From a virus (taxonomy: Duplodnaviria; Heunggongvirae; Uroviricota; Caudoviricetes), in IMG/VR virus record IMGVR_UViG_3300045146_000225, positions 1-64,000 of that record: 64,000 bases of DNA, one strand, 5' to 3'. Positions 6,001 to 52,388 of the stretch are shown piece by piece (the stretch's first letter is position 1; each line of letters opens with the position of its first letter). Both the position numbers and the translations under genes were made by a program. The notes under the pieces were generated by a model. It did not search any database. It worked only from the letters and a program-made list of their open reading frames with translations, and was not told the DNA's origin.

Positions 6001-9000
6001 TATGACCTCATTGTTTACCAAAGGATATTTATTGACCCCATCTAAAAGAGCAACATTTCCAGGTATAATTAAATATGGAATTCTCACATATACCGTCAAA
6101 TCCCTGAACTTTACCTCAATCCCATCGAACCCAGTATTATCATCCTTAACTATATCACCCCACAGCAAATCATCACGCCTCGTTATATAAAACCACGGGA
6201 TAACGATCGGGTCACCTGACTTGACGGAATAATCGTACGTGCCATTCTCTACACAGAAGTACCCACCAGAGCTGTAATCACCACCATCGTATACCACGGA
6301 ACCATCGCCTATAACGAGGTACGCCGTATCCTTCTTCAACATGTTGCTACCCGGGTACACGTGGTAATACTCGCCGTATTCAGACTCAAGCCCGCTCATA
6401 TAAGACTTGGAATAATAGTCGAAATCGAAGTCACACACAGAGTAAAACGCGAGAACACCGACACCAGCCTTGTACCTCAAGCAAGTCGTGAACGTGCCGC
6501 TAGACAACATCGGCTTCTTGCTGGAACAAACCGCGACGTAATTGGAATACGTTGAGAACTCACGTGATGTTCTCGTTATATAGCCAGCGTACGCGCATAC
6601 CTTATCAACGAGGCAATACCCACCATCAACCCGTATCAACAGCTCACCTATGGAACCAACAAGAGCATCGTAATGCTTCTTGTCGACCAGCACGATGTGA
6701 CCGGACGTGTACCCACCGACAGCATCCATGACATCACCACTCGCCGCCGAACCATTAACAGACATAACACCGTCCAAGCCAGTAGACGAAGTGAACGAAA
6801 CGGAGAACTCGACCTCGTCGCTCGCCTCGTAAGACACGATGTAAACCGATAAACCGTCGTTACACGCGAAGAACCCGCGCACCGGAATCTGGTTTATGCA
6901 GTTAACCAAACCCTCGCAAACCTTGTCACCGACAACGGACTTGCCGACACCGACGAAGTAGTAGTTCGATTCATCGACACCCACATCGTTACGCGAGTAC
7001 ACGAGCTTGACGGAACCGTTATCATCAATCGAGCCTATAAGCTTGAACACGTCACCGTCAACATAACCAGTGTACGAGTAATTGACGCTCGAGTTCGTCT
7101 TGTAAACTAGATACCTCGGCGTGAACTCCACAGCAGACACAACGTTATCAACATTGGCAATTATGACGTGGAAGTACTCGTCTAAAATCTCATCTTTTGT
7201 CTTACCCGAAATATCTACACCCTGCGCATAGTTGTTGATATCGTATATATACTCGTCCATCTTGGTAGCACTATCGAAGTATACAGGCTTGGTCATGACG
7301 CATAGCAACCCATTCCTATCGACCACTCCACCAGTACCGAAACACTTGACGTAATCGTTAACACCGCCCACGACGAACTTCTGCAACACGTTGTTCACGT
7401 AAACCTTCTGCGAACCATCAGAAACATCGACCACGTCGTAATCATCTATAAGCTCGAGAGGTGCCGAACCATCCCACGTGCCAGCGTACTCGGAAGGAAC
7501 GACGAACTTGTTACTGCTCGAATAATTAAACACCACCGCGTTGTAATCACCGGCATCACCATAAAGCAAATCGCTAGACAAACCCGTGGTGAACGTTATA
7601 ACATCATACCTGCTACCATCACCGTTAACCCTGCTGCCACCAACGTGGTTTATAACTATGGTATCAGTGTTAGACGGCACCGACAACATGTCCATCTTCA
7701 CGTGGCAAACACCCATACTATCGGGTACCTTGGCTATACCCGTCACGAATATATCCTTGAATGTACCGGAGAAGTCATTTACATTAACAGACTTGTCGGA
7801 TATTTTCAACGACTTATCAACACCACCATCACCGTGTTCACCGCCAGATATAACCCTGTGTAGCGAACCGTTCCTATCTGACACGACCGGCACGACAAGA
7901 TTTGATGTTGACAACTTGTCCTTGAATATACCGAACTCATCACCGTTCAGACCAGAGAAGAAAAGAGAGACACCTGTGTTATTGTTAACGGTGATGATTT
8001 TAGACGAATACGGGTCTATATCCGAGTACAACCTGGGGGTATTATCAACGCCAGCAACACTGTTGTACGTCACCTGCGAACCAACGTCGGCGAGCAATGA
8101 ACCGTACGTGGACACGTTACAGTAGAAGCCGATGTACCTGTTGTGGTCGAAAACATTAGAAGTGTTATCATCGAAGAGGAACTCCAAGTTGAATATGTTG
8201 GGGTACAGGAGCGAGTGGCGCTTGAACCCCTCCGATATGAACGTCTCGAAGTACTTCAACGTGTGGTCATCCTTGTAGAAATCGTGCAGGTACTCACCGT
8301 AAGACGAGTACACGCCGCTACGCATATCTATACCGTTCCAGTATGTCATCTTACCCTCGTTGAAACTCACATCAATAGGTGTCTGTGGGAAATCATCACC
8401 CGACACGACCTTGCGCAAGTACGCTCCTATCTTGGACTTCGCGGTTAAATCGAACGTCTTTATTATGTTGGAATTCCTAAGAAGGTCGTACATGTAATCA
8501 GTGTTCTTGTACGTGCCAGCCTCGAACTTCCTCTTCAACTCCACGACATCGTAGTTAACAGGCCCGTTTATCTTCAGCACGACGAAATAATCAGGTACAT
8601 CACCACCCTTCACGTACAGCGGCGACAAGTACGAGAACTTCTCGGCGTAGTACCTCGAGTTGAGGTACCTAACACCGGCGAAGTACAGCGAGAAATCGTA
8701 CTGGTCAGCGTAATCTGAAGTAACCCGAGTCGGGTCAACCTTGGTGAACACGTCGAAGAACTGGTCGTTGTTGGCACCACCCCTCGACAGGAACTGCTTT
8801 ATGTTGGCGGGGTACGATGCCCTCGTGTCAAGGACGTAATTCTTGTAAGCCTGCGCAGAGAGAGCACCGTTGGCATCAATCGTGTTCAACCACGCGCCAC
8901 CAGACGAACCGACCGTGAGCTTTATGTTACCCGTGAACAAGGGGTTCGTCCTCACTAGGGAGAACGTAGATTCGTTAGATGAAATATCCCTGAAAAAAAC

Positions 9001-9003
9001 CAT
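3046..9003 (-). CDS. Giant (1985 aa) virion structural protein, a putative long tail fibre or adhesin.
   Basis: Uninterrupted ORF in the late operon, only 13 nt from the upstream gene. The composition is Gly/Ser/Thr/Asn/Tyr/Val-rich and beta-type. Confidence 0.65.
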   Translation of the reverse strand: MVFFRDISSNESTFSLVRTNPLFTGNIKLTVGSSGGAWLNTIDANGALSAQAYKNYVLDTRASYPANIKQFLSRGGANNDQFFDVFTKVDPTRVTSDYADQYDFSLYFAGVRYLNSRYYAEKFSYLSPLYVKGGDVPDYFVVLKINGPVNYDVVELKRKFEAGTYKNTDYMYDLLRNSNIIKTFDLTAKSKIGAYLRKVVSGDDFPQTPIDVSFNEGKMTYWNGIDMRSGVYSSYGEYLHDFYKDDHTLKYFETFISEGFKRHSLLYPNIFNLEFLFDDNTSNVFDHNRYIGFYCNVSTYGSLLADVGSQVTYNSVAGVDNTPRLYSDIDPYSSKIITVNNNTGVSLFFSGLNGDEFGIFKDKLSTSNLVVPVVSDRNGSLHRVISGGEHGDGGVDKSLKISDKSVNVNDFSGTFKDIFVTGIAKVPDSMGVCHVKMDMLSVPSNTDTIVINHVGGSRVNGDGSRYDVITFTTGLSSDLLYGDAGDYNAVVFNYSSSNKFVVPSEYAGTWDGSAPLELIDDYDVVDVSDGSQKVYVNNVLQKFVVGGVNDYVKCFGTGGVVDRNGLLCVMTKPVYFDSATKMDEYIYDINNYAQGVDISGKTKDEILDEYFHVIIANVDNVVSAVEFTPRYLVYKTNSSVNYSYTGYVDGDVFKLIGSIDDNGSVKLVYSRNDVGVDESNYYFVGVGKSVVGDKVCEGLVNCINQIPVRGFFACNDGLSVYIVSYEASDEVEFSVSFTSSTGLDGVMSVNGSAASGDVMDAVGGYTSGHIVLVDKKHYDALVGSIGELLIRVDGGYCLVDKVCAYAGYITRTSREFSTYSNYVAVCSSKKPMLSSGTFTTCLRYKAGVGVLAFYSVCDFDFDYYSKSYMSGLESEYGEYYHVYPGSNMLKKDTAYLVIGDGSVVYDGGDYSSGGYFCVENGTYDYSVKSGDPIVIPWFYITRRDDLLWGDIVKDDNTGFDGIEVKFRDLTVYVRIPYLIIPGNVALLDGVNKYPLVNNEVIKGNTICVPTSNSDVSLYYRGVKYDNISPDQELFTIDGVSIPISRMNIGIGGIDDTHAYVVCGKSGALLYEGKEYAITPTGTMFVGGSENTFEVIDGVDAGVRMFLYEDYANYTIGDVVKSYKFSDDVITYTMFGLSDDVVFKDVNVSAYSMWTYRLQPRFNLHPIHDTNRVLFDFNGMSKLHLSSGEHDLSSDAYMYRDRFTKNAISTEYDYNKENSNVGYAYFNKLVKYACKWRYVDGFDCRGNSYRLNTSYVFGVNNICPSFDLDGQSTQGYTHEWGYLVSNRDRASADYIYGGLDVVISNGKKLLSGIFSIGDFVGKFTVKTGGVDKLQYTKLRYNKNTGECETFFRGVKVIVGDSSKYDGYLFSSVTRVVNKSSTDVLPITFDVIVGDNLSDGGYIVFCTTVYLDDISNVLMYDGVFIDGINMGKGVHDLVYHPGDPPIPQPRYKYLYKLYANNNYNIDGDYRLRDVTSLSYLDLYTLVDKKFSAKDMEYSNIKLPFTFNTSYMYNTMGSGETFVRPYNYGSYNNSTYPNYVYDVSMYIDDFGVNNPLLVRSSISGDSKMYGIHLYDGSTIQEMNNITGAGGSNIFFDNKGKSCRSVDSGGDSTSYVLPIDYAYQLMGGRNYYKNMLSYMSFSNIYNMVNNMSGMVDFGGISLRFERPTQIYKSNKLDAYGVDVNGFNGFSAYELYAAQNRVPYVINRYNGKYEPMFSDVITFTIGKYKGVYLQNSSFNASNAGFGLIRNFNHVKVSDGGIFKLYNKNTSDLFYEDIHEINIGKADYNVLLSSWDYGFHRKYTSSKDSVVVPGTLRVQEDDTFLNNVMVLPSGLSVSDYEVVKVEGVVTSIPDGYDVAYSEVNGKVSGLFDVSHGIIRVLVGMGISKSFDDFIFGGFDGTVDKSEFIGGMSEDEYVEMYIRENILPSFGISAVSTALYRFGSGIVKYVSGGTITDGISINKVSNTVFAFTYDSPSDGAASFAFNVSVKML

Positions 9004-9016
9004 CGCGCTTGTATTT

Positions 9017-12000
9017 TTACTTCAAGTTCTTGATGACGTTGTAAACGCTCTTGGTACCGCTTATGCTAGACGTGTTGACAGAAGAAGTAGCCACGTCAGG
9101 CTTGTGTTTGCACTGGACCGTGATGTCGAACGAGAACACGTCATCGTACCTGCCGCTGTTACCCTGGTACACCTTCTGGTAGATATCTATACCCATCTGC
9201 TTCATGTACGTCACGTTGGTGCGCTTCTTACCAACAGCACTGTACCCACCTACATAACCAAGTTTATCCTGGCACCTGTACTGGAAAACAACGGGTATGT
9301 TAATGGCATTCTCCTGACCGCTCTTCAACTTGGCCGAAGATAGGCTCTGGTGATTACCCTTTATGGAAATAGACTCATAATCCTTCGGCGACAGGTAAAG
9401 GTACGCGCCGCACGTGTACTTGCCTATCAAGTACTCGTCGTTCTCGTTGAACCCTATCTTGGTAGGGTAATTCAACGTTGTAGGTACACCAGAACTGTAT
9501 GTAGTCGCCGCCGAATAAGCCGATTGCTTGAGGTAGTTTATACCCATACCGTTAGTCGTTTCCTCCATCTGCACATCGAAACCAACCGCATGGCATATAG
9601 GCATAACGCTTTGCTTGTACACGTTATTGTTTTGGGTGAACGCCGGTTTGAACACTGCTTTATTGATATCAGAACCGAACATATAATCAGTATCAGGGTT
9701 AGCAGCTTTAAAAGCAGTTAGATACTCCTCCAGCCACGGGCAGTTCTTATCTATACAGAACTCACTCAACGAACCACCACCATTTATGGCAAAAGACCCG
9801 GTAAGGTCAGCATGTCCATTCCATATGTTTACATTCTCGTCCGGCATAGGAATAATTTGGTGAGAACTAGGTGCGATAGGCAACAACATCCTACCATCAG
9901 TCGGTACAGTACCGAAACCAGTATAAAAGGCACCAGTAAAATCATAACTAGAATTAGCAACAACAGGAACGTGGTACAATTCCTTCTCCAATGGGAAATC
10001 GTAATACCTAGAATTGATGAACTGCGACATCGACTGGCCTGACTGGTATCCTACGACGTTCTTGAAACCACCGACATCCGGCGTCTCGTTATGCAACACC
10101 GACATCGGTACCTTATCGTACTTCCTCCACGCGTAATCACCGTCAGTCACGGTAGACGAACTAGGTACAGGCAGACCTATACCAGCACCGAACCTCGAAA
10201 CAAGCTCGAGAGGTACACCGGCAGAGTTCTCTATACTTATTAGGAAATCGTATGAAACTACACCACCTACACCGAGCTTCTCCTGGTCGTAGTACCCTGC
10301 AAAAATACTGACGTTCTCACCGTTGCTAACCAACCGTCTAGTACCATCCTTTTCCACGACGTACACGCGTATCTCACCTATGGAGTTGGTTATGGCAAGC
10401 TCCAAAGCGGCTATCCTGCTCTTGAAATCAGATATAACAGCATACGCGTCGATTATGTTACCCTCCTGTGTGAACATCCCCGACGCTATCGACTCCAGCT
10501 TGTGCGGGTAGTACTTGTCACCCTTCGTTATCGAATCATACAGGTGTATGTCGAGACCCCTAGAGTTTAATTCATCTTGGAAATCAACGAGAGATGACTC
10601 TATAAGCAACCTCTCGGTCAACGTCACATCCTCCTCGCGCATCTCCATCTCGGCGGGGAACTCTATCGGTATTATATCCGACCAATCTGACATCACTGGG
10701 TTAATCGGGTAACCAGCCTCGGACACCGATTTAACCCTGAACTCGACTATCTCACCCTTGTTTATAGGTATATCAATCTGGTTTATGTTAACGACATCTG
10801 GATCCTGCACGTTCTCGTCGCTCCACACGTACAACCCTGTAGCCGAATCGAACTCCTTCTTGCGAATCTTCGAGAAAACCTCCACCCACTCGGAGAAATA
10901 AGCGTTCGTTTGACCATCGCCAGTCAAAGGTATGTTCTTCGCCGAACTAGTACCACCGGACTTGTTCTTGTACCTGTAAGAAACAACGAACTGTATCACC
11001 TCCTGCTTACCGTACTCGTTCTCCACGGGTAACGGCATAGGGAAGAAACCGCGCACCCTGTACTTGGCGGACACGCTAAGGTTTATGTTGGTCTTTATAT
11101 CGAAAGTAAGCTCGTCCAACATGGTGTTGAGCTGCTTCTGCAAACCAGTCTTCTTGTTGAGCAAGTCGGTTATCTTCTTCTGCGTGTTCAACCTGTCCTG
11201 GTCAGTAGCCGTGGCGGAAGTGTTGAGTTTAGCCCTGTAATCGTTTATAACCTTGTTTGTAGACTCTATCTCGTTCTTTATGTTATCCTTGCCCGCTATC
11301 TTGGTCTTCAACTCGGATGTCGACTTGCTGCTCTTTATGTGGTTGTTTATGTTGACAACAGCCATGTCAGCCGCATTCACGACGGGAGCGTTGGGCGTCA
11401 TACCCAAAACTGATGGGATCTGCCTCTCCTTGGCGAAATTCATCAACACGAGACCGAAATCGCTAACGTAATTAGTGTAGTACTCGCCGAGAGACATCGA
11501 CTTGCCACCAGACAACAATATACTCAACTCGTTGGTGTAAACACCGAAACCCTTAGACCACACGTCAGTCGTCATGTCCATCTGCGCGGCTATCGGCTTA
11601 ACGAATATAACCTCGCGTTCAGAGTAACCGACGTTGACCGACAACTCGGGTATCCTGTAAGCCTCCGGTCTAATCTTCAACACGCCAACACCGACGTTTA
11701 TGATGTCCTTGCCGAACGAACGCTCCAACAACACCCTGTTGGTCTGCGAATCAATAGCCCTCACGACGTACTCGCTATCACCAGACGTCACGAGGACATC
11801 GCCCTCCGCAAGGTACGTCTTACCCTTGTTAGCCGATAACACGTCGGTGTAGAACAACACGTCGAGCGTGTAGTACACCCTCTTGACGACGATACCGTCT
11901 ATGGTCGCCGAAGATTCATCAATCCTCAACACGTTGAAAGACCCGCGCCTCCTGTTTATAGAAGACGGCAACTCGTACTCGTTGTCATCTACATCGTACG

Positions 12001-12595
12001 CTATACCGGCATTCCTGAAAGAATCGAGAACATCGTCATACCTGAGCGTGTTGACACCCTTGAGGTTAGAATCGAAGAACCTTATATCATCGGCATCACT
12101 GGAGTTCATTATAACACGCCTCACCGAAAACTTGGACATTGACGTATCACCAACCATACCCGAAACGTTAACGGGTATGCTCAACAGCGGGTTTAAAAAC
12201 GACTCGAACATCCAGTTGCTCTTAGCCCTGAACTCGGTCGGGTTCGAAAGCGATACATCAGACGTGGAGTTAAGCAAGTCAACAAGCTTTGACATCTTCT
12301 GCATTGCGAACGTCCTGATGTTACCATCGGGGTAAGCGAGGTTTATGGTATCGCTGTTGTTCTCTATCATAGAGTGCAGGTCGGACTTCAACCTGTCTAT
12401 ATCGGAGCGCATATTACCATACGACGGTATGTTTATGGTTTGCTTTTTATTGTTGTTATCGTACCACACGACACTCTCGTGATCAGCACGCGATGTCGTT
12501 GATTGTGCGAATTTCAACAAGAACTCGTCAAGTGCCCTGTAGAGGACAACTAGGTTCGACATCATCTGCGACTGGGACATTACACCGTTCATCAA
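9017..12595 (-). CDS. Large (1192 aa) virion structural protein with a central coiled-coil segment. It is the first gene after a T4-type late promoter.
   Basis: A TATAAATA box lies 28-35 nt upstream. The coiled coil is KIAGKDNIKNEIESTNKVINDYRAKLN...LQKQLNTMLDEL. Confidence 0.65.
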   Translation of the reverse strand: MMNGVMSQSQMMSNLVVLYRALDEFLLKFAQSTTSRADHESVVWYDNNNKKQTINIPSYGNMRSDIDRLKSDLHSMIENNSDTINLAYPDGNIRTFAMQKMSKLVDLLNSTSDVSLSNPTEFRAKSNWMFESFLNPLLSIPVNVSGMVGDTSMSKFSVRRVIMNSSDADDIRFFDSNLKGVNTLRYDDVLDSFRNAGIAYDVDDNEYELPSSINRRRGSFNVLRIDESSATIDGIVVKRVYYTLDVLFYTDVLSANKGKTYLAEGDVLVTSGDSEYVVRAIDSQTNRVLLERSFGKDIINVGVGVLKIRPEAYRIPELSVNVGYSEREVIFVKPIAAQMDMTTDVWSKGFGVYTNELSILLSGGKSMSLGEYYTNYVSDFGLVLMNFAKERQIPSVLGMTPNAPVVNAADMAVVNINNHIKSSKSTSELKTKIAGKDNIKNEIESTNKVINDYRAKLNTSATATDQDRLNTQKKITDLLNKKTGLQKQLNTMLDELTFDIKTNINLSVSAKYRVRGFFPMPLPVENEYGKQEVIQFVVSYRYKNKSGGTSSAKNIPLTGDGQTNAYFSEWVEVFSKIRKKEFDSATGLYVWSDENVQDPDVVNINQIDIPINKGEIVEFRVKSVSEAGYPINPVMSDWSDIIPIEFPAEMEMREEDVTLTERLLIESSLVDFQDELNSRGLDIHLYDSITKGDKYYPHKLESIASGMFTQEGNIIDAYAVISDFKSRIAALELAITNSIGEIRVYVVEKDGTRRLVSNGENVSIFAGYYDQEKLGVGGVVSYDFLISIENSAGVPLELVSRFGAGIGLPVPSSSTVTDGDYAWRKYDKVPMSVLHNETPDVGGFKNVVGYQSGQSMSQFINSRYYDFPLEKELYHVPVVANSSYDFTGAFYTGFGTVPTDGRMLLPIAPSSHQIIPMPDENVNIWNGHADLTGSFAINGGGSLSEFCIDKNCPWLEEYLTAFKAANPDTDYMFGSDINKAVFKPAFTQNNNVYKQSVMPICHAVGFDVQMEETTNGMGINYLKQSAYSAATTYSSGVPTTLNYPTKIGFNENDEYLIGKYTCGAYLYLSPKDYESISIKGNHQSLSSAKLKSGQENAINIPVVFQYRCQDKLGYVGGYSAVGKKRTNVTYMKQMGIDIYQKVYQGNSGRYDDVFSFDITVQCKHKPDVATSSVNTSSISGTKSVYNVIKNLK

Positions 12596-12622
12596 TAGTA
12601 TGTTTTTGGAAGCGTATGTACT

Positions 12623-12630
12623 TATTTATA
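12623..12630 (-). promoter_or_regulatory. T4-type late promoter -10 box TATAAATA.
   Basis: The + strand reads tatttata. It sits about 30 nt upstream of the ATG at 12595. A gp55 homolog is present in the window. Confidence 0.55.
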
Positions 12631-12708
12631 CGTGTATTATTCAATACAAAACGAGCACAAACACAACGAAAAACAACCAACCGCTTTACACGAGTTGGTT
12701 GTTCACAA

Positions 12709-12783
12709 GTGGATCATATTGGAATCGAACCAATTACCTACTGATTATGAGTCAGCCGCTCTAACCGATTGAGCTAATGATCC
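12709..12783 (-). tRNA. tRNA-Met (anticodon CAT). It could be an elongator, an initiator, or an Ile2 lysidine-type tRNA.
   Basis: rc gives TGGATCA-TTAGCTCAATCGGTTAGAGC-GGCTGACTCATAATCAGTAGG-TAAT-TGGTTCGATTCCAAT-ATGATCCA. That is a 7-bp acceptor stem, D and T arms, a TTCGATT T-loop and a CAT anticodon. No CCA is encoded. Confidence 0.8.
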
Positions 12784-13006
12784 ATTAAAATCAATCTCTA
12801 ACTATCATGTTACCACATTTCGGACAGAACTTCTCTTTCGTTATGGGACCAACCTTACAACATTCTGTAAAATTAATACCAGCAAAACTAAGTGATTCGC
12901 CACAGGTAACTTTCAAAAGCTTGGTTCTACCAACAACCAAAGTTCTGAAAAACATGATGAAATCATATATGTACACCTTTAACAATATTTTTTTTCTATA
13001 AGTTAG

Positions 13007-13014
13007 AATCACAA
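13007..13014 (-). promoter_or_regulatory. Bacteroidota-type -7 box (TAnnTTTG) facing the tRNA.
   Basis: rc of caaatata is TATATTTG. It is preceded on the transcript by an imperfect hairpin (13040-13075) and a T-run. Confidence 0.4.
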
Positions 13015-13105
13015 AACAAATATACTACTTTTTTTAAATAAAAAACACCGCATGCCTAAAAATATTTTAGGTATGTGGTTCGATTAATAATATTCCTCGT
13101 CAAAC

Positions 13106-13602
13106 TTACCTACCTAGATTAATGAAAGGCGTGTTTGAACCTGAAACTTGCGGCAATTTACCATCCCAGACTTCAATAGCTTTATAATTAACCAAAGTTG
13201 GCGAAATGCTGGCGGCAAGCAATTGGTTCGCTTTAGCCTGTGCTTGCGCGACAAGTAAGATACTCTGCGCATCTCCATTTGCTTTAGCAATAGCAATCTC
13301 AGCTTTTGCTTTTTCTTTAGCAACCTCGTTCTCGGCTGCCTGTGCTTCTTGTGTCATTTTAACCTTCGAATCTAAAGCATCCTTAACACTTTTAGGAATC
13401 CTGATACTTCCAATCAAATATACTTTATCAATTATAATACCTGTATTTTTTAAAGCATAGGTTACTTTATTTTGCAAACTATCTATTAGCTTACCTTTCC
13501 CTTCACCATATACATACTCAACCGGCATAGAGCCACAAATTTTATTCAACTCGTCACGCATCGTATTCCTAACAACTATAGACCTGATGTCGTCTTCACC
13601 GT
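13106..13602 (-). pseudogene. SPFH/band-7 (prohibitin/HflC-like) domain gene, 5'-truncated. Its coding sequence starts directly at the tnpB stop codon.
   Basis: IRSIVVRNTMRDELNKICGSMPVEYVYGEGKGKLIDSLQNKVTYALKNTGIIIDKVYLIGSIRIPKSVKDALDSKVKMTQEAQAAENEVAKEKAKAE matches the SPFH domain plus its Ala/Lys-rich C-terminal helix. There is no N-terminal transmembrane segment and no in-frame start. Confidence 0.5.
13390..13427. repeat. 38-bp direct repeat, copy 1 (inside the SPFH fragment). Copy 2 is at 15193-15230.
   Basis: ttttaggaatcctgatacttccaatcaaatatacttta is identical at both sites. On the minus strand it contains GTATATTTG. Confidence 0.8.
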
Positions 13603-14805
13603 TCAAATGAAATTGGAAGAAATTACCGTATCGCCTGAGTGGTAATAAGGATGTTTCACCAAAAACATTTGTTTGTATTGGGAACCGTAAGTACCCAAAG
13701 CGAACCGAGCCAGTGAATTTGTCGCACCGACAGTATCGGCATCGCGTGAAACACCACACTTCACACAAACAAATTCTCCCTGACTTGCTCGGTTCGCCTT
13801 CTCCCTGTGGTTACAGTATGGGCATGTAATAGAATTACCATAAGCGGACACTCTCCGAAGAGAGACACCGTTCTCCTCGGTTAGCATTTGAATCCTGCTG
13901 TTTATTCTACCAATAGACCAACCAGTGAGAACAGACCGCATATTTTTACTCAGGCGACCTCTGAGTTTACTCTTGCTTTTTAGTTTACTCTTGCTTTTTA
14001 GTTTACTCTTGTTTTTGATTTTCCGGTTGTCCTCTAGGACAAGCAGCCGTAAAGTATCAAATGGAATCTGCTTTATGGAATGATCTATGTATTCAAGGAT
14101 CTCCTCTCTACACGCATGCCATGCTGTTGAATTTCGTTTCTTACGTTTCAGTTTTTGTAGCAGTGGCATCATTTTTGACCCGTAATGGTTTCCTTCATCG
14201 TCATTGATGACATGTACAGCACCAGGATCTACACCAATGATGTTTCCTTCCGTATTCTTTACTTTTTCACATTCAAATGAAAACTGGACATATTTATCGG
14301 TCAAGATAACCGATGCACACAGCGTCCCTTTAGATTTCCATTTGTTGAACATTTTGTTCTTTTTCAATGGAATTGCCACAGAAACTGCTCTCTCACGTGA
14401 ATCAAAACAACGCAAATCAACCAACAGATCGAATCCTTTCAGTTCTGGATTCAGTTGAATATTTACATTCGTACAGCTAAGTAGAATACGACTCGAATTA
14501 TGATGCGGTCGTGAATATGGCTTGTTCAATTCATCAGCACTGCGTTTGGTTCCAAGAACCAAAGCATGTGCTTCAGCGAATGCATTCTTCTTTGCTCTAG
14601 CGGTCAACCACGATTCGCATCTTGATAGGTTCTCTGCTAACAACAAAGATGGTTTCTTCATTCCATTCAATATATCAGATTCGTGATGCTCGATAGCCCA
14701 GGTCACAACTCTATGCATTTCAGATATGAATTCACGGATCGAAGTCAACTTCGATTCTGTTATCCACTTGCCGAAATGGCATTTTGATGATCTAATGTAT
14801 TTCAT
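13603..14805 (-). CDS. tnpB: IS200/IS605-family TnpB (OrfB) RNA-guided nuclease homolog, full length with an intact RuvC triad.
   Basis: IGVDPG (RuvC-I), LVLEDN (RuvC-II), zinc finger CPYCN...CVKCG, and DADTVGATN (RuvC-III). There is a KSKLKS x3 repeat (18-bp DNA repeat, 13967-14020). Confidence 0.85.
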   Translation of the reverse strand: MKYIRSSKCHFGKWITESKLTSIREFISEMHRVVTWAIEHHESDILNGMKKPSLLLAENLSRCESWLTARAKKNAFAEAHALVLGTKRSADELNKPYSRPHHNSSRILLSCTNVNIQLNPELKGFDLLVDLRCFDSRERAVSVAIPLKKNKMFNKWKSKGTLCASVILTDKYVQFSFECEKVKNTEGNIIGVDPGAVHVINDDEGNHYGSKMMPLLQKLKRKKRNSTAWHACREEILEYIDHSIKQIPFDTLRLLVLEDNRKIKNKSKLKSKSKLKSKSKLRGRLSKNMRSVLTGWSIGRINSRIQMLTEENGVSLRRVSAYGNSITCPYCNHREKANRASQGEFVCVKCGVSRDADTVGATNSLARFALGTYGSQYKQMFLVKHPYYHSGDTVISSNFI

Positions 14806-15110
14806 TTCTTCGAGCTATTTATTTTTCTCACTGACTTCTTTGTTTTGTGACTACGCTTTTGATCGCTTATCATTCATACCGGAACCAACTTCATCATATA
14901 CGAATCCAACTTCATAGGTTGTATGGTTCCGACATCCAATTCAAACTCATCTTCCGTTACACGCACTACTTTCATTTGTTTCATTTCCTGCTTTCCTATT
15001 AGTTTATAAAAGTTGGTATTTTTTCCAATTTCTTCTAATAATGTATATTATTTAACATGCAGTTATCAACCCTACACTTGAAAAGAATAATTTGTTTTTC
15101 ATAATTGATT
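13603..15110 (-). mobile_element. tnpB-only (IS1341-like) IS605-family remnant. The left-end-like region lies upstream of tnpB. There is no recognisable right end.
   Basis: About 300 bp of non-coding sequence precedes the tnpB start. The 3' end abuts SPFH coding sequence, which suggests a deletion removed the right end. Confidence 0.45.
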
Positions 15111-15111
15111 G

Positions 15112-15195
15112 TGTTTAAATTAAAAATAAAAACCTAGTTTATGTTTGGACCCCATTTTAAAATGAAATCACATTGCAAATATACAAATATTTTAG
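15112..15195 (-). repeat. Duplicated promoter and leader cassette, copy A (about 84 bp, about 93 % identical to 16015-16098).
   Basis: Contains TATATTTG (15176-15183, minus) and the shared leader ttaaaatgggRNNcaaacataaactaggtttttatttttaat. Confidence 0.7.
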
Positions 15196-15230
15196 GAATC
15201 CTGATACTTCCAATCAAATATACTTTAAAA
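15193..15230. repeat. 38-bp direct repeat, copy 2 (upstream of the tnpB unit, overlapping the stop of 15214-15513).
   Basis: Identical to 13390-13427. Confidence 0.8.
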
Positions 15231-15513
15231 AATCTTCTAAGTATCCTATCGATCCCATTATATAACCATACAATGTGCCATTTACAAGTTTATCGTTTTT
15301 AATAATGCGTTTTTGAATTAGAAATAACTCATAAGTTCCGTACCCATTCTCCCTTAATTTCTTCAAAATATAATCTTTACTATTTGTTGCTGAGTAAATA
15401 AAATAGTCCAGCAATTCATAATCATCGACATTTTCAATATTTCTTTCAATCTTTTGTTTTATGAGATTTAAAGAATCGATATCAAATTTTTGATTTTGTT
15501 CATTCATAATCAT
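15214..15513 (-). CDS. Hypothetical protein (99 aa).
   Basis: ORF with a 4-nt start/stop overlap to the upstream gene. Confidence 0.45.
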   Translation of the reverse strand: MIMNEQNQKFDIDSLNLIKQKIERNIENVDDYELLDYFIYSATNSKDYILKKLRENGYGTYELFLIQKRIIKNDKLVNGTLYGYIMGSIGYLEDFLKYI

Positions 15514-16013
15514 ACAATTGGTTCTTGTGGTGGAGGCATTGTGTTTTTTTGTAATTCCCTTAAATATAAATCTCTCTTTGCTTTAAATTCGGAGAATAGT
15601 TCTTCTGCTTTAGTATCATAATTTTGCAATTTTGAGTTTATTTCTTCATAGTGTTCTTTAAAGTATTTTGCAACTTGATTTTCCGCACTAATATAAGATG
15701 CAACAACAATAGATAATAGCAACGTTACAATGATACCTAAATAAACAAGAAAATCATCCAATCTTTTATTAATTGAATTTAATTTTTCATCAAATTGCTC
15801 AATTTCGCTCTTTAATTCAATGTCTTTTTCTATGTCGCCTTTCTTTTTGTTGAGTGCTAGTGTTTTCTTCATCTCAAATTTGATTTGAGAAACAAGCTTG
15901 TTTTTTTCAAAAGAATATATGGTTAATTGAGCGAGAAAAGCAAAAGCAATACATAATAAGACTATAAACATAACGCTTTTTTGTGAGTCTTTTATTATCA
16001 TTAAAAATTTCAT
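15510..16013 (-). CDS. Membrane protein with two transmembrane segments flanking a coiled coil (167 aa).
   Basis: Hydrophobic segments FIVLLCIAFAFLAQL and LGIIVTLLLSIVVASYI. The promoter box CAAATATA at 16078-16085 is rc TATATTTG. Confidence 0.5.
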   Translation of the reverse strand: MKFLMIIKDSQKSVMFIVLLCIAFAFLAQLTIYSFEKNKLVSQIKFEMKKTLALNKKKGDIEKDIELKSEIEQFDEKLNSINKRLDDFLVYLGIIVTLLLSIVVASYISAENQVAKYFKEHYEEINSKLQNYDTKAEELFSEFKAKRDLYLRELQKNTMPPPQEPIV

Positions 16014-16014
16014 T

Positions 16015-16098
16015 TTATCAATTAAAAATAAAAACCTAGTTTATGTTTGCATCCCATTTTAAAATGAAATCACATTGCAAATATACAAATATTTTAAA
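16015..16098 (-). repeat. Duplicated promoter and leader cassette, copy B. It drives 15510-16013.
   Basis: Same sequence as 15112-15195. Confidence 0.7.
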
Positions 16099-16122
16099 TA
16101 AAAACACCGCACACCTAAAAAT

Positions 16123-16359
16123 ATTTTAGCTGAGCTATCTCAGTCTGAGATTTCCCTGCTTGTACTAAACAAGAAATTTGATACCTTTGTTGTTCGGTTA
16201 TATGAACCAAAGTGCAACTTGTTTTTGGGAGACTTAGGGGGGCAATTTAGCAAATATACCCATCAAGGCAAAGAGGTAATTTCTTACCATCTTTGTTTTG
16301 ATGGATATATTTGATTTTTATTACCATTCCCAAAGTTGCATTTACTACTTGAATCTAAG
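16123..16359 (+). repeat. About 225-bp intergenic repeat element, copy 1. It is an IS30-end-like, MITE-like or structured-RNA candidate.
   Basis: About 90 % identical to 37022-37238. It starts attttagctgagc and ends ccaaagttgcatttactacttgaatctaag. Internal hairpins are present, and there is an internal CAAATATA box. Confidence 0.7.
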
Positions 16360-16416
16360 TTACTATAAGTTTAAAAATTAATATTTAATGAACAACTCAC
16401 CCACGACAAAGCCGAT

Positions 16417-16935
16417 TTAATTATCGAACCAAAAAACAACCCTGACATCCTCTGGTTCTCCAAGTGTTTTTAGTTCTTCAAGGTGTATAAAAAACCATCC
16501 ATCTAAGTTTTGTCTATACGTTAAAACCTTACCTTCACCCTCTTCTGCAAGTGCTGCTCCATTTATACAGTTACCTTCTTTTTTAGTAACCCTTCTATTC
16601 CAAAAGGTCTTGTCATAATCAAACTCTAGCAGCTCTTTTGCTGTTAAATAAGAAGCCGAATGAGCATAACACTCCAAATCTTCGTAATATTGTCTTACTT
16701 CATCACTTAAATCTTCAGGTAATCCTCTAGGTTCACTTATTGGTTCGCAGCGGTCGTAATTTCTAACACCAGCTAAAAAGGCAAACATCGAGTAACTTCT
16801 CCAACAAAATGGATTTCCACTTTTTTCTTTGTTGTAGTATTTTTTCTCATAAGAATCAAGCGAAAAATGGTTATCTACCTTTTCCCAGTTATTGTTTATC
16901 TTCACTTCCGCAAATGAATAAATGTCACATCCCAT
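16417..16935 (-). CDS. Hypothetical protein (172 aa).
   Basis: ORF only. Confidence 0.5.
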   Translation of the reverse strand: MGCDIYSFAEVKINNNWEKVDNHFSLDSYEKKYYNKEKSGNPFCWRSYSMFAFLAGVRNYDRCEPISEPRGLPEDLSDEVRQYYEDLECYAHSASYLTAKELLEFDYDKTFWNRRVTKKEGNCINGAALAEEGEGKVLTYRQNLDGWFFIHLEELKTLGEPEDVRVVFWFDN

Positions 16936-16965
16936 AATATTTGATTTTTAAATTAATGAACTAGT

Positions 16966-17196
16966 CTAAATATTGCGATTAATTATTTCAAAATGTCTAA
17001 AATGCGGCAATGATTCGTCAATTTCATAAGGCATAACTCTACGTTGCATGAAAAAGTAAGGTATACACATCGCGAGTTCATATGTAGTAATATCTTCTTT
17101 AGGTTGCCAAATCATTTCAAGTGGAAATATAATCTTATGACCAAAACATATGTCCAACAATGCAGTTTCTTCTGTATTCGATTTCTCGTGTTCCAT
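16966..17196 (-). CDS. Hypothetical small protein (76 aa).
   Basis: ORF 42 nt downstream of a TATATTTG box (17238-17245, minus). Confidence 0.4.
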   Translation of the reverse strand: MEHEKSNTEETALLDICFGHKIIFPLEMIWQPKEDITTYELAMCIPYFFMQRRVMPYEIDESLPHFRHFEIINRNI

Positions 17197-17265
17197 TTTT
17201 AAATGTTTTTTTTTATTGTTCTCATAAATTTAATTTGCAAATATACTACTTTTTTAAATAAAAAA

Positions 17266-17298
17266 CACCGCATATAAAATTTTTTCCCACATGCGGTG
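17266..17298 (-). terminator. Rho-independent terminator after 17319-19511. A host-type promoter follows immediately.
   Basis: caccgcat...atgcggtg forms an 8-bp stem. On the minus transcript it is followed by UUUUUUAUUU and then GTAGTATATTTG. Confidence 0.6.
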
Positions 17299-17318
17299 CA
17301 AGACAAACATAATCTTAA

Positions 17319-27740: not shown

Positions 27741-29809
<2,069 letters not shown>

Positions 29810-34705: not shown

Positions 34706-34898
34706 AAATTATTAAAATTAGTTTTTCAAATGTAAAGAATTCATCTCAATAATCCGGGTGAGCGTTGGCATTTTCTTTTTTTGTCTTTTAATCAGTCGTT
34801 AATTATCTGCTGTGTCTGTTTTTTCGGCTTGCGTACAACAATAACAAATATACCATGTTAATATTGTGACTTTTTAATTAAGTTAACGTATAATATGG

Positions 34899-36571: not shown

Positions 36572-36755
36572 AATATCTGGTTTCGTTATTTATGCTTGTA
36601 CCTAACTTACTTATATGCTTACCAAAGGTGCGAATTTACTACATATGTTTGTTGTATATGCGTACTTTTTTGTTGCCAAATATAGCACAAATATATGTTT
36701 TTTTTAAATATCATCGAATGGGGATTTGATTTTTTTTTGCAATTCTTTGTTACGA

Positions 36756-36823
36756 CAGAAGGTGAATGGGATGGCACAAGAGCATACGGTGAAACGCTGT
36801 TGGCTGGTAGAAAAACACTTGAA
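36756..36823 (+). repeat. 68-bp identical duplicate of an internal segment of gene 37772-38350 (the other copy is at 37937-38004).
   Basis: cagaaggtgaatgggatggcacaagagcatacggtgaaacgctgttggctggtagaaaaacacttgaa at both sites. Confidence 0.85.
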
Positions 36824-36871: not shown

Positions 36872-37024
36872 TTAAAAATTCAATGTACGAAGAAAATTTA
36901 TGTTTTTTTTTCGCGGTAGCGTATTAAGTTTATCCTTAACACGCTTAATATCCTCATCAGTAATATTTTCAAAAGATGATTTCTTGGGAAAATACTGCCG
37001 AATCAAGCCATTCACATTCTCATT
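36872..37024 (-). pseudogene. IS30-family transposase C-terminal fragment. An IS-end-like sequence extends to 36823.
   Basis: NENVNGLIRQYFPKK...LNTLPRKKNINF matches the IS30 C-terminus NENTNGLIRQYFPKK...LNNRPRKTLKF. The adjacent sequence ggtagattcaagcttcaaatgcaactttag matches 22 of 30 positions of the 225-bp element terminus. Confidence 0.55.
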
Positions 37025-37238
37025 TTAGCTGAGCTTCTCAGTCTTGGATTTCCCTGCTTGTACTAAACAAGAAATTTGATACCTTTGTTGTTCGGTTATA
37101 TGAGCAAAAGTGCAACTTGTCTTGGGAGACTTAGGGGGGTAATTTAGCAAATAGATGGTGAGAAATTACCCCTTTGTTTTGAAAAATATTTGATTTTTAT
37201 TACCATTCCCAAAGTTGCATTTACTACTTGAATCTAAG
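37022..37238 (+). repeat. About 225-bp repeat element, copy 2.
   Basis: See 16123-16359. Confidence 0.7.
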
Positions 37239-37771: not shown

Positions 37772-38350
37772 ATGCGGCTAATAGAAACAACAATATTGGA
37801 ATACATCAACCCAATTAAAAAAACAGACGTGTTTTACCACGGATCAACAGACAAAAACATGAGCGGTAAGAACGGCATACATGTCGGAACTAAATTAGCA
37901 GCAACACAAGCACTACAAGCAAGGATAGGTGTTCCGGCAGAAGGTGAATGGGATGGCACAAGAGCATACGGTGAAACGCTGTTGGCTGGTAGAAAAACAC
38001 TTGAACTTAAAAACACGGAGTTAGGATACAACTGCACTACCGGATATAATTGCGGGAAAGATTTACCAGAAGAAGATTATTATCCCACACAAAGAGAATA
38101 TAGAGCGTCATTCTCAGATGGAACCCCCATTCCGTTCAATTGCAAACCAATCGTGTTCCCTGTTAAAATCACAGGACAAATGACAAACACGCAATCTTAC
38201 CCCCACACCGACGACAAAGCAAACTCCATGATGAAAAGGAACTTAAAAATGGGCAACGCTAAAAGTGGTTACTACTACACCAATATAGCGCAGGATTCCG
38301 GCTCGATATCTGCGGTAGTCCCAGACAAGTCATTCCTCGAAATACTGTAA
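37772..38350 (+). CDS. Hypothetical protein (192 aa).
   Basis: ORF. A terminator hairpin follows. Confidence 0.5.
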   Translation: MRLIETTILEYINPIKKTDVFYHGSTDKNMSGKNGIHVGTKLAATQALQARIGVPAEGEWDGTRAYGETLLAGRKTLELKNTELGYNCTTGYNCGKDLPEEDYYPTQREYRASFSDGTPIPFNCKPIVFPVKITGQMTNTQSYPHTDDKANSMMKRNLKMGNAKSGYYYTNIAQDSGSISAVVPDKSFLEIL

Positions 38351-46009: not shown

Positions 46010-46077
46010 TTAAAAAGATTTAAAAATTAATACTAAATATTTAACGTTTTAATATATTAAATAATTATTTTTTCGAG

Positions 46078-46200
46078 AGTAAAATTTCACTTTTTAAACT
46101 AAAAAATTATTTTTTTGGAAGCAAAATTTCACTTTTTAAACTAAAAATTTATTTTTTTGAAAGTAAAATTTCACTTTTTTAAACTAAAAATTTATTTTTA
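46078..46200. repeat. 3 x 41-bp direct repeats (gtaaaatttcactttttaaactaaaaatttatttttttg).
   Basis: Seen directly in the sequence. Confidence 0.85.
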
Positions 46201-46467
46201 CACACAGGTACACATGCACACAGGTACACACACGTACATGCGCACACATGCACACACATGCACACACGTACATGCGCACACATGCACACACGTACATGCG
46301 CACACATGCGCACACGCATTTATATATAATACTAGTATTATATATAAATGTATATAAATATAATTAATATAATTAAATATAAATTAAATATAATAAGTAT
46401 AATAAGTATAAATTAAATATAATAAATATAATAAGTATAATAAGTATAATAAGTATAATATTCGCGC

Positions 46468-47070
46468 GCGGACGTACGTATGCAAGACGTGGTTTTTTTT
46501 TCGAGTTCGGTCATAAAACAAAAACCAAGAAACTACAAATAACAGCAGCATACATTCCTTTCGAACAGAAACGATGTTTTTTTCAATTCAAATACAAAAA
46601 CAGTACATTGACACGTCTTAATATGTTTTATTCGATTTAAACGCATTTATGAACGTCGGTTTTTTCGTGTTTTTGAAACCAACAAGATTTTTCACAAAAA
46701 AAACATGCCTCGCACACGCGGACGTACGTATGCAAGACGTGGTTTTTTTTTCGAGTTATTTTTCACAAAAAAAACATGCCTCGCACACGCGGACGTACGT
46801 ATGCAAGACGTGGTTTTTTTTTCGAGTTCGGTCATAAAACAAAAACCAAGAAACTACAAATAACAGCAGCATACATTCCTTTCGAACAGAAACGATGTTT
46901 TTTTCAATCCAAATACAAAAACAGTACATTGACACGTCTTGATGTGTTTTATTCGATTTAAACGCATTTATGAGCGTTTGTTTTTTTCGTGTTTTTGAAA
47001 AACCAACAAGATTTTTCACAAAAAAAAACATGCCTCGCACACGCGGACGTACGTATGCATGGCATGTTTT
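46468..47070. repeat. Two roughly 250-bp direct repeat units, each preceded by a GC-rich palindromic core and followed by A-run / hairpin / T-run elements.
   Basis: Spacing of core copies is 250, 71 and 254 bp. The units are more than 95 % identical. Confidence 0.85.
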
Positions 47071-47319
47071 TTCCGTTATTTTAAAAACTATTGGAATTTA
47101 ACAACGACCCAAAATGGAATGTATGTAACTTAACGATGGTTTCTTGTGCGTATCAAAAAAACAAGTTTTCTTACCCTAAATGCGAGTGTAGCGTGAATTT
47201 CTACACGAGAGATGCCGTTTCTTTCCTGTGCGAGAATAAACGTAACAAATTGACAACCACTTGTTAAAAAAAACAAAAATATATTTAATTGCATTTAGCA
47301 TTTTTTAATAAAAAAGTAG

Positions 47320-51041: not shown

Positions 51042-52388
51042 ATGAGTAACGGTTTGAGTTTTAATTTTTCATCTGTGCAGACAACTGATTTTTCTAATGG
51101 TGGTGGGTACCAGCAGGATTCAAACTTGTGGCAGTGTAAATCGTCTAACGGTAAGAACAACGAGTACGATGCTATCATCAGGTTTCTTCCGTACATGTTC
51201 GACATCAACAAGTCGAAGTACACTAAGAACATAGTTAGTGTTAAGAACCCCATGAATCCAAAGGAATTCTTAGTTTTTGATTGTCCTAGGAACAATGGTA
51301 AGGCTTCTATTTTCAGTAATTTGAACGAAATACTGAGAACAATCGTTAATAATAACAATAAACATGACACTGCCGAGACTGCTGAAATCAAGAAATGGTT
51401 CAGCAGGTATATGCAGTCACATTCTATTGTTTATATCATGACTGACAATTTTAACCCTTCTAACCAGAACACGGTTAAGATTTTCAAGTATGGTTCAAAG
51501 ATTAACGATATATTGACTGACGCCGAGAAGGGTACCGGTACTATCAAGCCTTTCAAACCTTTTGACTTGGTTAACGGTAAGGATTTCTACTACATCGCGA
51601 AGAAGGGATTCGATACGTATGACAAGTATGATGGTGCGAGGTTCATGGATAATAACAAGCCTTTCCAGTTCTTATTGCCTGACGGTTCTATGTATTATGT
51701 TGCCCAAGAGCATTTGAACGCGATAGAGGCTGGTCATACAGCGAACCAACCTATCGTGTGGTTGTACAACGAGATTGTTCCGAAGATGGATGCTTATTTC
51801 CACAAAGACCCATCGCAGGAGACAATCGCTAAGGCTTGTGGTTATCTACGTATTATCCTTAGCAGATTCCCAGGTATCTACAACAAGTTGATTGAAGTTA
51901 CCAATGATGATTTCGCTAAATCTTGTCTTGTTAATGCCGTTGGTCAAGCATCTCATTTTCAAATACCAACTGTTGGTAACACTCAGTTCGATATAAACAC
52001 TAACCAGGTCGTTGAGAACAATGCTGCGCAATTTACCCAGCAGCCTGCTCAACAGCAAGTGCAGCAACCTGTTCAACAGCAACAGTGGTCTCAGCCAGCA
52101 CCACAACAAGTGCAGCAGCCTGTTCAACAGCAGTGGTCTCAACCTGCACCACAACAAGTGCAGCAACCTGCTCAACAGCAATGGACTCAACCTGCACCAC
52201 AACAAGTGTATCAACCTGCTCAACAGCAACAGTGGTCTCAACCAGCACCACAGATGCCTAGTTTAGATGGTGGTTTCGCACCTCAGCCAGCAATGCAGCA
52301 TCAACCAAAGAATGATTTATCATTCCTAGATGCTCCGCAAGAAGTTAATATTGATCCAAGATTCGCAAACGCGATGTCAACGCTGTAA
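51042..52388 (+). CDS. Single-stranded DNA-binding protein, T4 gp32-like, with an inserted Gln/Pro-rich tandem repeat before the C-terminal tail.
   Basis: NGKNNEYDAIIRFLPY aligns with T4 gp32 GNGQAVIRFLPS. There are 4 x QQP.QQQ(Q)WSQPAPQQVQQP repeats (DNA 52020-52260). Confidence 0.65.
   Translation: MSNGLSFNFSSVQTTDFSNGGGYQQDSNLWQCKSSNGKNNEYDAIIRFLPYMFDINKSKYTKNIVSVKNPMNPKEFLVFDCPRNNGKASIFSNLNEILRTIVNNNNKHDTAETAEIKKWFSRYMQSHSIVYIMTDNFNPSNQNTVKIFKYGSKINDILTDAEKGTGTIKPFKPFDLVNGKDFYYIAKKGFDTYDKYDGARFMDNNKPFQFLLPDGSMYYVAQEHLNAIEAGHTANQPIVWLYNEIVPKMDAYFHKDPSQETIAKACGYLRIILSRFPGIYNKLIEVTNDDFAKSCLVNAVGQASHFQIPTVGNTQFDINTNQVVENNAAQFTQQPAQQQVQQPVQQQQWSQPAPQQVQQPVQQQWSQPAPQQVQQPAQQQWTQPAPQQVYQPAQQQQWSQPAPQMPSLDGGFAPQPAMQHQPKNDLSFLDAPQEVNIDPRFANAMSTL

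Follow-up and report, generated by a model that had tools for sequence, protein, structure and literature searches.

A probable transposase-deleted IS607-family element with an intact tnpB and a predicted omega-RNA in the genome of a tailed phage

A 64,000-nucleotide (nt) stretch of DNA from a tailed phage (Caudoviricetes), positions 1 to 64,000 of IMG/VR record IMGVR_UViG_3300045146_000225 and referred to here as the window, carries on its minus strand a 1,475-bp element (13598..15072) that interrupts an SPFH/Band-7 gene. With a probability of roughly 0.7, this element is a transposase-deleted, non-autonomous insertion sequence of the IS607 family that has kept an intact TnpB and its omega-RNA, the scaffold of the RNA guide, both under selection. 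TnpB is the ancestor of Cas12, and a homing-nuclease role of TnpB has been shown for bacterial IS605 and IS607 elements. The object is of an ordinary kind, a non-autonomous IS607-family element, and what is unusual about it is the population to which it belongs, which is multi-copy, transposase-less, and apparently restricted to phages.

The borders of the element were set by homology breakpoints against at least six independent copies whose surroundings are unrelated. The TnpB relatives compared came from viral and metagenome contigs and from exact-protein look-ups. Homology with loci L119, L120 (the same as L162 and L014), L121 (the same as L095), L096-L100, and L012 spans 15072/15073 to 13598 and breaks there each time, and several of these copies are 93-97% identical in DNA to that of the window. 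The left end (14993..15072, minus strand) begins GGGTTGATAAC; 14 independent insertions start with GGGTT behind unrelated 5' flanks. The right end, ...TTTCATTTGAACGGT at 13598, lies 5 nt beyond the stop codon of tnpB. An earlier note on this DNA had held that no right end follows the gene, but the 3' end of tnpB itself provides it, since the GAACGGT terminus is common to about 28 independent insertions with unrelated sequences downstream, and the terminal ~30 nt are retained as non-coding sequence in relatives whose open reading frame (ORF) stops earlier. The ends and unrelated flanks of 11-28 independent insertions display neither terminal inverted repeats nor target-site duplication. Solo ends were not found in the window, where hidden Markov models of the left and right ends gave one match each. 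In the DHFR gene (L121) and the gene of a DPPY DNA methyltransferase (L119), the left flank, GGGT, and the right flank join into a continuous reading frame, and 10 of 11 target sites have a purine at position -1. These insertion sites point to GGGT as the insertion core and a candidate target-adjacent motif (TAM), in agreement with the insertion of IS607 elements at GG or G-rich sites (PMC13565253).

Membership of the IS607 family is evident from the full-length relatives, in which a 54-codon ORF is followed by a TnpA of 206 amino acids (aa), composed of a MerR-type helix-turn-helix and a resolvase domain, and then by TnpB. The TnpA of L096 scores 190 bits against the NCBIfam model of the IS607 transposase (NF033518; cut-off 110). 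A TnpA-like segment lies upstream of tnpB in 50 of 116 loci examined, and in L096-L100, L012, and many other loci tnpB lies behind tnpA on the same strand and extends to the right end. Because the window copy encodes no complete serine-recombinase TnpA, whereas full-length relatives with the same ends do, it is classed as a non-autonomous derivative of the family. Remnants of tnpA, among them ...YVYDEVGSGMNDKR... and the last ~50 nt of the gene, were located by blastn to L100 at approximately 14806..14903 (minus strand). Full-length copies have a small ORF before tnpA; what is left of it in the window (14874..14984, minus strand; alignment to L012 and L100) now forms part of a fused 36-codon ORF, and in L199 a 36-aa gene is called at the matching position. 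The segment between the left end and tnpB measures 267 bp in the window versus 864 bp in the full-length L100; blastn shows that the window retains positions 21-140, 560-598, and the last ~53 nt of the latter, the peptide YVYDEVGSGMNDKR included. The first 20 nt of the left end are common to the window and the closest copies. This segment ranges from 216 to 475 nt among copies that differ by deletions, and the deletions of tnpA are nested, L121 retaining more than the window and L119 and L120 less; tnpA is thus undergoing stepwise decay in this phage population. The same region varies in other ways among more distant loci: L012 has an extra 178-codon ORF between tnpA and tnpB (7465-8001), and in L013 (7838-8001) and L210 (18393-18545) the position before tnpB is occupied not by tnpA but by a small NikA/MobC-like gene of the ribbon-helix-helix type, recalling the Arc repressor of IS605 elements (bioRxiv 10.64898/2026.09.24.754181).

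The tnpB gene (13603..14805, minus strand) is an uninterrupted ORF that encodes 400 aa, delimited and characterized by Pfam, alignment, and an AlphaFold model. The protein matches the Pfam domain Cas12f1-like_TNB (PF07282) with 39.2 bits, above the cut-off of 26.3. The RuvC triad (D193, E258, D357) and the zinc-finger cysteines (C328, C331, C347, C350) are invariant in 37 family members and all present in the window copy, which bears out the earlier reading of tnpB as intact. Profile matches in the PDB are limited to the C-terminal part with the RuvC domain and the zinc finger. The model (mean predicted local distance difference test score 87.5, predicted template-modeling score 0.75) was matched over its full length by Foldseek to AsCas12f, OsCas12f, the ISFba1 IS607 TnpB, the ISDra2 TnpB, and mimivirus Fanzor2, with E = 1e-15 to 1e-11 and template-modeling (TM) scores of 0.48-0.61 for AsCas12f, ISFba1 TnpB, and ISDra2 TnpB. 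Judged from its sequence, TnpB belongs to a divergent clade. After RuvC-II, three units of an 18-nt tandem repeat (13964..14029) add 12 aa (KSKLKS twice) to the protein; the number of units varies from one to three among copies, L119 also has the expansion, and the model shows the segment (residues 264-283) as disordered. The tnpB of L012 is split at this lysine-rich loop by an insertion of ~190 nt (8819-9004).

In the four transposase-less copies (window, L119, L120, and L121), all tnpB frames are open and the pairwise ratio of non-synonymous to synonymous divergence (dN/dS) is 0.14-0.27 at a dS of ~0.09; tnpB has therefore been under purifying selection since the loss of tnpA. The decaying, frameshifted insertion that relatives might have displayed is thus not what these copies contain.

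Selection is also visible in the RNA. The predicted omega-RNA scaffold (13598..13798, minus strand) overlaps the 3' end of tnpB and finishes at the right end of the element. It was derived from a consensus fold and covariation in an alignment of the last 220 nt before the right end of 27 elements with 55-100% protein identity. The consensus comprises 41 pairs in six helices, one of them a long-range helix in which 13666-13671 pairs with 13604-13609 beside the terminus. Standard pairs fill 97.4% of the paired alignment cells, compared with 32-42% when the partners are slid by one to three columns; compensatory changes occur in 18 pairs, compared with 1-4 in the slid controls, and in 500 shuffles the covariation score never rose to the observed value. 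The window copy retains all 41 pairs, and its single-sequence fold has a z-score of -3.67. The modeling that had been suggested as a check on the earlier note has in this way found a structure at the 3' end of tnpB, albeit by another route, the proposed IS605 covariance model being unsuited to an element of the IS607 family. An Rfam scan of 12000-16500 at E <= 1 returned a tRNA alone and no omega-RNA, RAGATH-18, or group I intron family, the last of these being the test for an IStron. Nor is the layout of RAGATH-18 type, the element stopping 5 nt past the tnpB stop codon.

As had been anticipated, the sequence in the guide position derives from the SPFH gene: the first 20 nt past the right end, which by their position would form the guide (GAAGACGACATCAGGTCTAT; 13578..13597, minus strand), are SPFH sequence. 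Transcripts that read through the right end would carry an SPFH-derived guide of ~16-20 nt, and the predicted substrate of TnpB would be GGGT followed by GAAGACGACATCAGG.... At each insertion examined, the guide equals the local flank. A second match was found neither in the window (up to three mismatches) nor in 210 fetched loci beyond the same phage, and a search of IMG/VR, which included the exact 20 nt, gave none either; the suggestion that the phage has retargeted the nuclease finds no second target in these collections.

The right end also supplies a TTG that overlaps the tnpB stop codon (ATTTGAACGGT; 13603-13609 in the window, and likewise at the L014/L120 and L095/L121 junctions). In three of four cases (SPFH, DHFR, and Pnkp-ligase) this TTG shares the reading frame of the gene fragment that follows it; the products begin MNG..., and gene callers annotate fragments starting there. 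Translational coupling through this codon is conceivable, though the chance expectation is about 1 in 9.

The gene into which the element is inserted is represented in the window by its C-terminal ~163 codons (13106..13597, minus strand), the N-terminal ~125 codons being missing. The Pfam Band_7 match begins directly past the element, at profile positions 90-175 of 176, and so supports the earlier observation that an SPFH frame resumes after tnpB. Full-length homologues are lipoproteins of 280-286 aa that read ...MFQTYRKG/EEDIRGIVVRN..., the slash marking the break. The fragment in the window begins exactly at G-EDDIRSIVVRN, the break falling at ...YRK/G/EDD..., which by comparison with the homologues places the insertion site at AAG GGT GAA, with its GGGT core; the intact allele would have read ..AAG GGT GAAGACGAC... 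On the other side of the element, a leader (15073..15117, minus strand) with an ATG at 15100-15102 encodes MKNKLFFSSVG before it is interrupted by the left end, and a 33-aa ORF is called at this position in L200-L204. The peptide resembles the signal-peptide start of homologues (P0114: MKNKNLLYLIA...FSSSC), a similarity too short to prove relationship. Rebuilding the empty site around a GGT core makes the leader and the SPFH fragment appear in frame, but this reading was dropped because the clean DHFR and methyltransferase insertions give GGGT; the in-frame appearance is a one-in-three coincidence.

The most economical explanation for the missing 5' half is a deletion adjoining the left end within one SPFH gene, which is favored because a promoter and a signal-peptide-like start stand in the right place and orientation. 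Such a deletion is the type of product expected when an IS607 end recombines with a nearby GG. The N-terminal half (~125 codons) was not found in the window, in the fetched loci, or for this lineage in the protein database, where the matches were unrelated SPFH genes, split or truncated, from other phages. In contigs of related phages (L211 301-1168; P0104, P0105, P0109, P0113, P0116), SPFH genes are often truncated or split without a mobile element, and decay of this accessory gene seems to be frequent. The context of P0104 (SPFH, 75% identity) was set aside as uninformative, since it belongs to a different, integrase-bearing phage.

The earlier note had described the locus as bounded by 38-bp direct repeats. 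The repeat is exact, and 100 shuffles gave no chance match, but it bounds nothing: one copy lies 118 bp beyond the left end of the element and the other 171 bp beyond its right end. The native copy (13390..13427) codes for conserved SPFH residues (DKVYLIGSIRIPK), and the ectopic copy (15190..15227) overlaps the stop codon of ORF99, in place of the terminator hairpin of sister cassettes. No similar repeat accompanies other copies of the element, and a search of IMG/VR found no relatives of ORF99. Adjoining the ectopic copy, with a 5-nt overlap (TAAAA), is a 77-nt copy of a promoter cassette (15118..15194, minus strand) that is 97% identical to 16020-16096; the duplicated cassette reported to point into tnpB is therefore real and upstream of the gene, but it is outside the element. 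Sister intergenic cassettes, which consist of a terminator hairpin, a T-run, and then GTATATTTG, occupy ~13003-13085, 16064-16150, and 17224-17290; the one upstream of the element (15162-15202), with the 38-nt copy in place of the hairpin, belongs to the same family. This motif occurs 15 times in the window against 1.06 expected, its strand following the local gene orientation, with further sites at 34845, 34898, 43210, 43921, 47319, 50032, 53126, and 60213; a scan for sigma-70 promoters showed no enrichment. In Bacteroidota the -7 promoter element is TAnnTTTG, and the cassette motif may be a clue to a host in that phylum. T4-type phages have mobile promoter and stem-loop cassettes, and repeated regulatory cassettes mark junctions of module shuffling.

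The first 13 nt of the 38-nt copy at its 5' side (TAAAGTATATTTG) are similar to the cassette sequence AAAGTAGTATATTTG, and its 3' 7 nt (CCTAAAA) equal the 5' arm of the cassette hairpin (ACCTAAAATATTT), giving microhomologies at the joins of CCTAAAA/TAAAA and AAAGTA..TATTTG. The 38-bp and 77-bp segments are best read as a composite patch with sources 1.8 kb downstream and 0.9 kb upstream. Two adjacent copied segments joined at microhomologies point to serial template switching or short ectopic conversion, a process probably unrelated to the transposition mechanism. A target duplication or element terminus was rejected because the repeats are not at the ends and other copies lack them; a circle-integration footprint or simple tandem duplication was rejected because either needs extra replacement events and leaves the 5-nt overlap unexplained. 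Exact flanking repeats can thus be microhomology patches that have nothing to do with the mobile element they enclose.

At least four copies of the element exist in this phage population, in SPFH, DHFR, and DNA methyltransferase genes and beside a Pnkp-ligase gene. The arrangement of the window was assembled independently in two other samples (L202 and L203; 99.9% identity). Two ENA contigs, L200 and L201, match the window at 99.3-99.4% from 21513 to 13598, with differences that include an 18-nt repeat-unit indel in tnpB. Past the element, L200 continues into the C-terminal part of DHFR and L201 into Pnkp-ligase/Hen1 genes; single-nucleotide polymorphisms (SNPs) within their elements are mosaic across window-, L120-, and L121-type copies. 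These contigs are either real recombinants between copies or assembly chimeras across the 1.4-kb repeat.

Farther afield, one peptide pattern retrieved 127 TnpB relatives from metagenome contigs and three distant ones (27-34% identity) from a reference set in which 185,579 bacterial and archaeal species are represented by a genome each, two of the three being in metagenome-assembled genomes of Thermoplasmata. In viral contigs, the same pattern and a second one gave 18 relatives, and blastn of the GenBank phage collection in distant mode gave tRNA matches only. The neighborhoods inspected look phage-like, and several contigs bear from two to five copies, most of which lack tnpA. The distribution suggests, provisionally, an IS607 lineage resident in phages, a single peptide pattern being a limited probe. 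One 205-kb contig (Ga0268262_10000013, L153-L158; the same as the 152-kb IMG/VR contig of L102-L106) has five copies of a 52%-identical TnpB. At four of these five, tnpA is not nearby, and their right end is different and shorter (...GAGGTAACTAT), without the GAACGGT terminus.

Among characterized systems, the closest parallels are with IS607 elements of the ISFba1 type (PMC11061315; PDB 8iaz). Like them, the relatives of the window copy encode a serine-recombinase TnpA and then a TnpB. Both groups lack terminal inverted repeats and target duplication, and both have G-rich ends and targets, a TnpB of ~390-400 aa that contains a zinc finger and the RuvC D-E-D triad, and a guide taken from the flank at the right end; the model of the window TnpB matches 8iaz over its full length. 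They differ in that the omega-RNA of the window lies inside the tnpB ORF, whereas the RAGATH-18-derived reRNA lies outside and downstream of it; in the likely core, GGGT rather than the reported TAMs AGGAG and GAGGG (PMC11061315); in the lack of a RAGATH-18 match in Rfam and of tnpA in the window copy; and in residence, the clade of the window being found in phage-like contigs and the ISFba1 type in gut bacterial genomes. The placement of the omega-RNA, overlapping the 3' end of tnpB and finishing at the right end, is instead that of ISDra2 of the IS200/IS605 group (PDB 8h1j, 8exa), with which the guide from the adjacent flank and the protein fold are also shared. ISDra2 has a Y1 HUH transposase rather than a serine recombinase, its ends and TAM differ, and the sequence similarity of its TnpB to that of the window is marginal (E ~1e-3). 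Fanzor2 and IS607-like elements of giant viruses (PDB 9b0l; PMC3627910) offer a structural match and another case of an IS607-type TnpB relative multiplying in large viral genomes; their viruses are eukaryotic and Fanzors have a rearranged catalytic glutamate (PMC13565253), whereas the virus here is a bacteriophage and its TnpB is canonical. The free-standing homing endonucleases Seg and Mob of T-even phages are likewise selfish nucleases of accessory regions that spread in co-infection (PMC13565253), but targeting by the window element would be RNA-guided, its transposon ends are kept, and its homing is a prediction.

The element and its surroundings form part of a 4.7-kb segment (12596-17318) that is an accessory island, since the 730-aa and 1192-aa genes on either side of it have homologues directly next to each other in the closest relative, with 51% identity for the 730-aa protein. 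The segment is AT-rich (26-40% GC versus ~48% in the flanking genes) and includes a tRNA-Met gene (12709-12783; Rfam scan). The locus had been assigned to the late structural region; neither Pfam nor PHROG assigns a function to the neighboring 730-, 1192-, and 1985-aa genes, and an accessory island describes it better. Elsewhere in the window are genes for an NAD-dependent DNA ligase, a ribonucleotide reductase, a UvsW-like helicase, and a methyltransferase, a set typical of large phages of lytic type. Repeats are plentiful. A sequence of ~130-240 nt upstream of the ORF167 cassette (16123-16359) recurs 21 kb away (37022-37238) with 93-100% identity, with a perfect 30-nt inverted copy at 29780-29809 and a related piece in the L119 contig. 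A 76-nt repeat (36748-36823 and 37930-38005) has 97% identity and a spacing of 1.2 kb, and a Q/P-rich repeat with a 24-nt period lies inside an ORF (52041-52252). A possible replication origin or packaging region is the dense tandem-repeat block at 46053-47073, in which 42-nt units and two 286-nt repeats are combined with AT-rich 9-nt units and a low-complexity run of ACACATGC type (46186-46325).

The mechanism best supported by this analysis would be selfish maintenance by RNA-guided cutting of empty sites, because it combines the known biology of the family (PMC10055086, PMC11061315, PMC13565253), in which TnpB has a homing role in element maintenance (PMC10055086), with the selection on tnpB and omega-RNA. 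The element entered a GGGT core in the SPFH accessory gene of a phage. Like other TnpBs, that of the window would, in complex with its omega-RNA, cleave empty alleles, which consist of GGGT and a guide match. Repair by recombination with an occupied copy would then reinstate the element or spread it, in co-infecting relatives included; new sites would require TnpA in trans from a full-length copy. Homing of this kind would explain why tnpB and the omega-RNA are selected in spite of the decay of tnpA. The element is most likely selfish cargo, one of the two roles first envisaged for it, which fits the data, and retargeting by the phage is unsupported.

Several points weigh against this interpretation. 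The NCBIfam model guided_TnpB matches with E = 9e-15 but 54.8 bits, under its cut-off of 100, and nuclease activity, omega-RNA processing, and the GGGT TAM are predictions from sequence. The enzyme might be impaired by the 12-aa lysine-rich expansion beside RuvC-II. Searches for an intact SPFH allele of this lineage and for a complete tnpA copy from the same samples found neither, so that no homing target and no source of TnpA is demonstrated, and it could have been gene conversion, not transposition, that gave L119 and L120 their common deletion architecture. With the GGGT core, the leader and the SPFH fragment do not share a reading frame, and the left flank can be read as the result either of an adjacent deletion or of recombination between copies.

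The last of these points bears on an unlikely, but not the least likely, alternative, in which the odd left flank and the truncated SPFH gene arose through recombination between copies at different loci or through chimeric assembly across the repeat. It would account for L200 and L201, which match the window to 13598 and then enter the C-terminal part of DHFR or the Pnkp-ligase gene, for the mosaic SNPs inside the element, and for the flanks out of frame. Yet the same arrangement recurs in at least two other samples with a right flank that runs into the syntenic 1192-aa gene, the promoter and signal-peptide-like start stand upstream in the correct orientation, and the reciprocal product, an SPFH N-terminal half beside a left end, was not found in the window or the fetched loci. 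It is somewhat less probable still that the insertion is an inert relic, its TnpB non-functional, for example through the 12-aa expansion, and its ORF kept only through recency. Such a relic might well have a deleted tnpA, a lysine-rich expansion next to a catalytic motif, a broken and truncated host gene, and a relative (L012) interrupted at the same loop. Against it stand the full ORFs of four transposase-less copies with their low dN/dS at a dS of ~0.09, the retention of every catalytic and zinc-binding residue and of all omega-RNA pairs, and the occurrence of the expansion in L119 as well, in what the model predicts to be a disordered loop. A third reading, that the phage has domesticated TnpB as a programmable nuclease or repressor against its host or competitors and has installed the duplicated promoter for its expression, is very improbable. 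The promoter cassette recently copied directly upstream, the purifying selection on tnpB without tnpA, and the apparent confinement of the clade to phage-like contigs would suit it; the guide, on the other hand, is merely flanking SPFH sequence, as at every other insertion, with no second match in the window, fetched loci, or IMG/VR, and the copies, instead of occupying a single conserved locus, are found in different, broken genes. An intact RuvC triad sets the window TnpB apart from repressor-type TldR (PMC10705468), and there is no fixed host-promoter guide of the kind seen in such domesticated proteins.

A wider picture may tentatively be drawn, although it is rather doubtful as a whole: the TnpB clade would be an IS607 lineage that lives essentially only in large phages and spreads after transposase loss by RNA-guided homing, cutting the empty alleles of co-infecting relatives, while recombination between copies reshuffles accessory modules, as the alternative right flanks of L200 and L201 suggest. 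Non-restorative homing between co-infecting phages has so far been mostly a proposal (PMC13565253). With several transposase-less copies whose tnpB and omega-RNA are intact and selected, defined ends and guides, and a candidate GGGT TAM in the population of one large phage of lytic type, the locus offers a natural test system for inter-phage homing, and it adds a TnpB clade, compact at ~380-400 aa, whose guide scaffold is embedded in the ORF and absent from Rfam.

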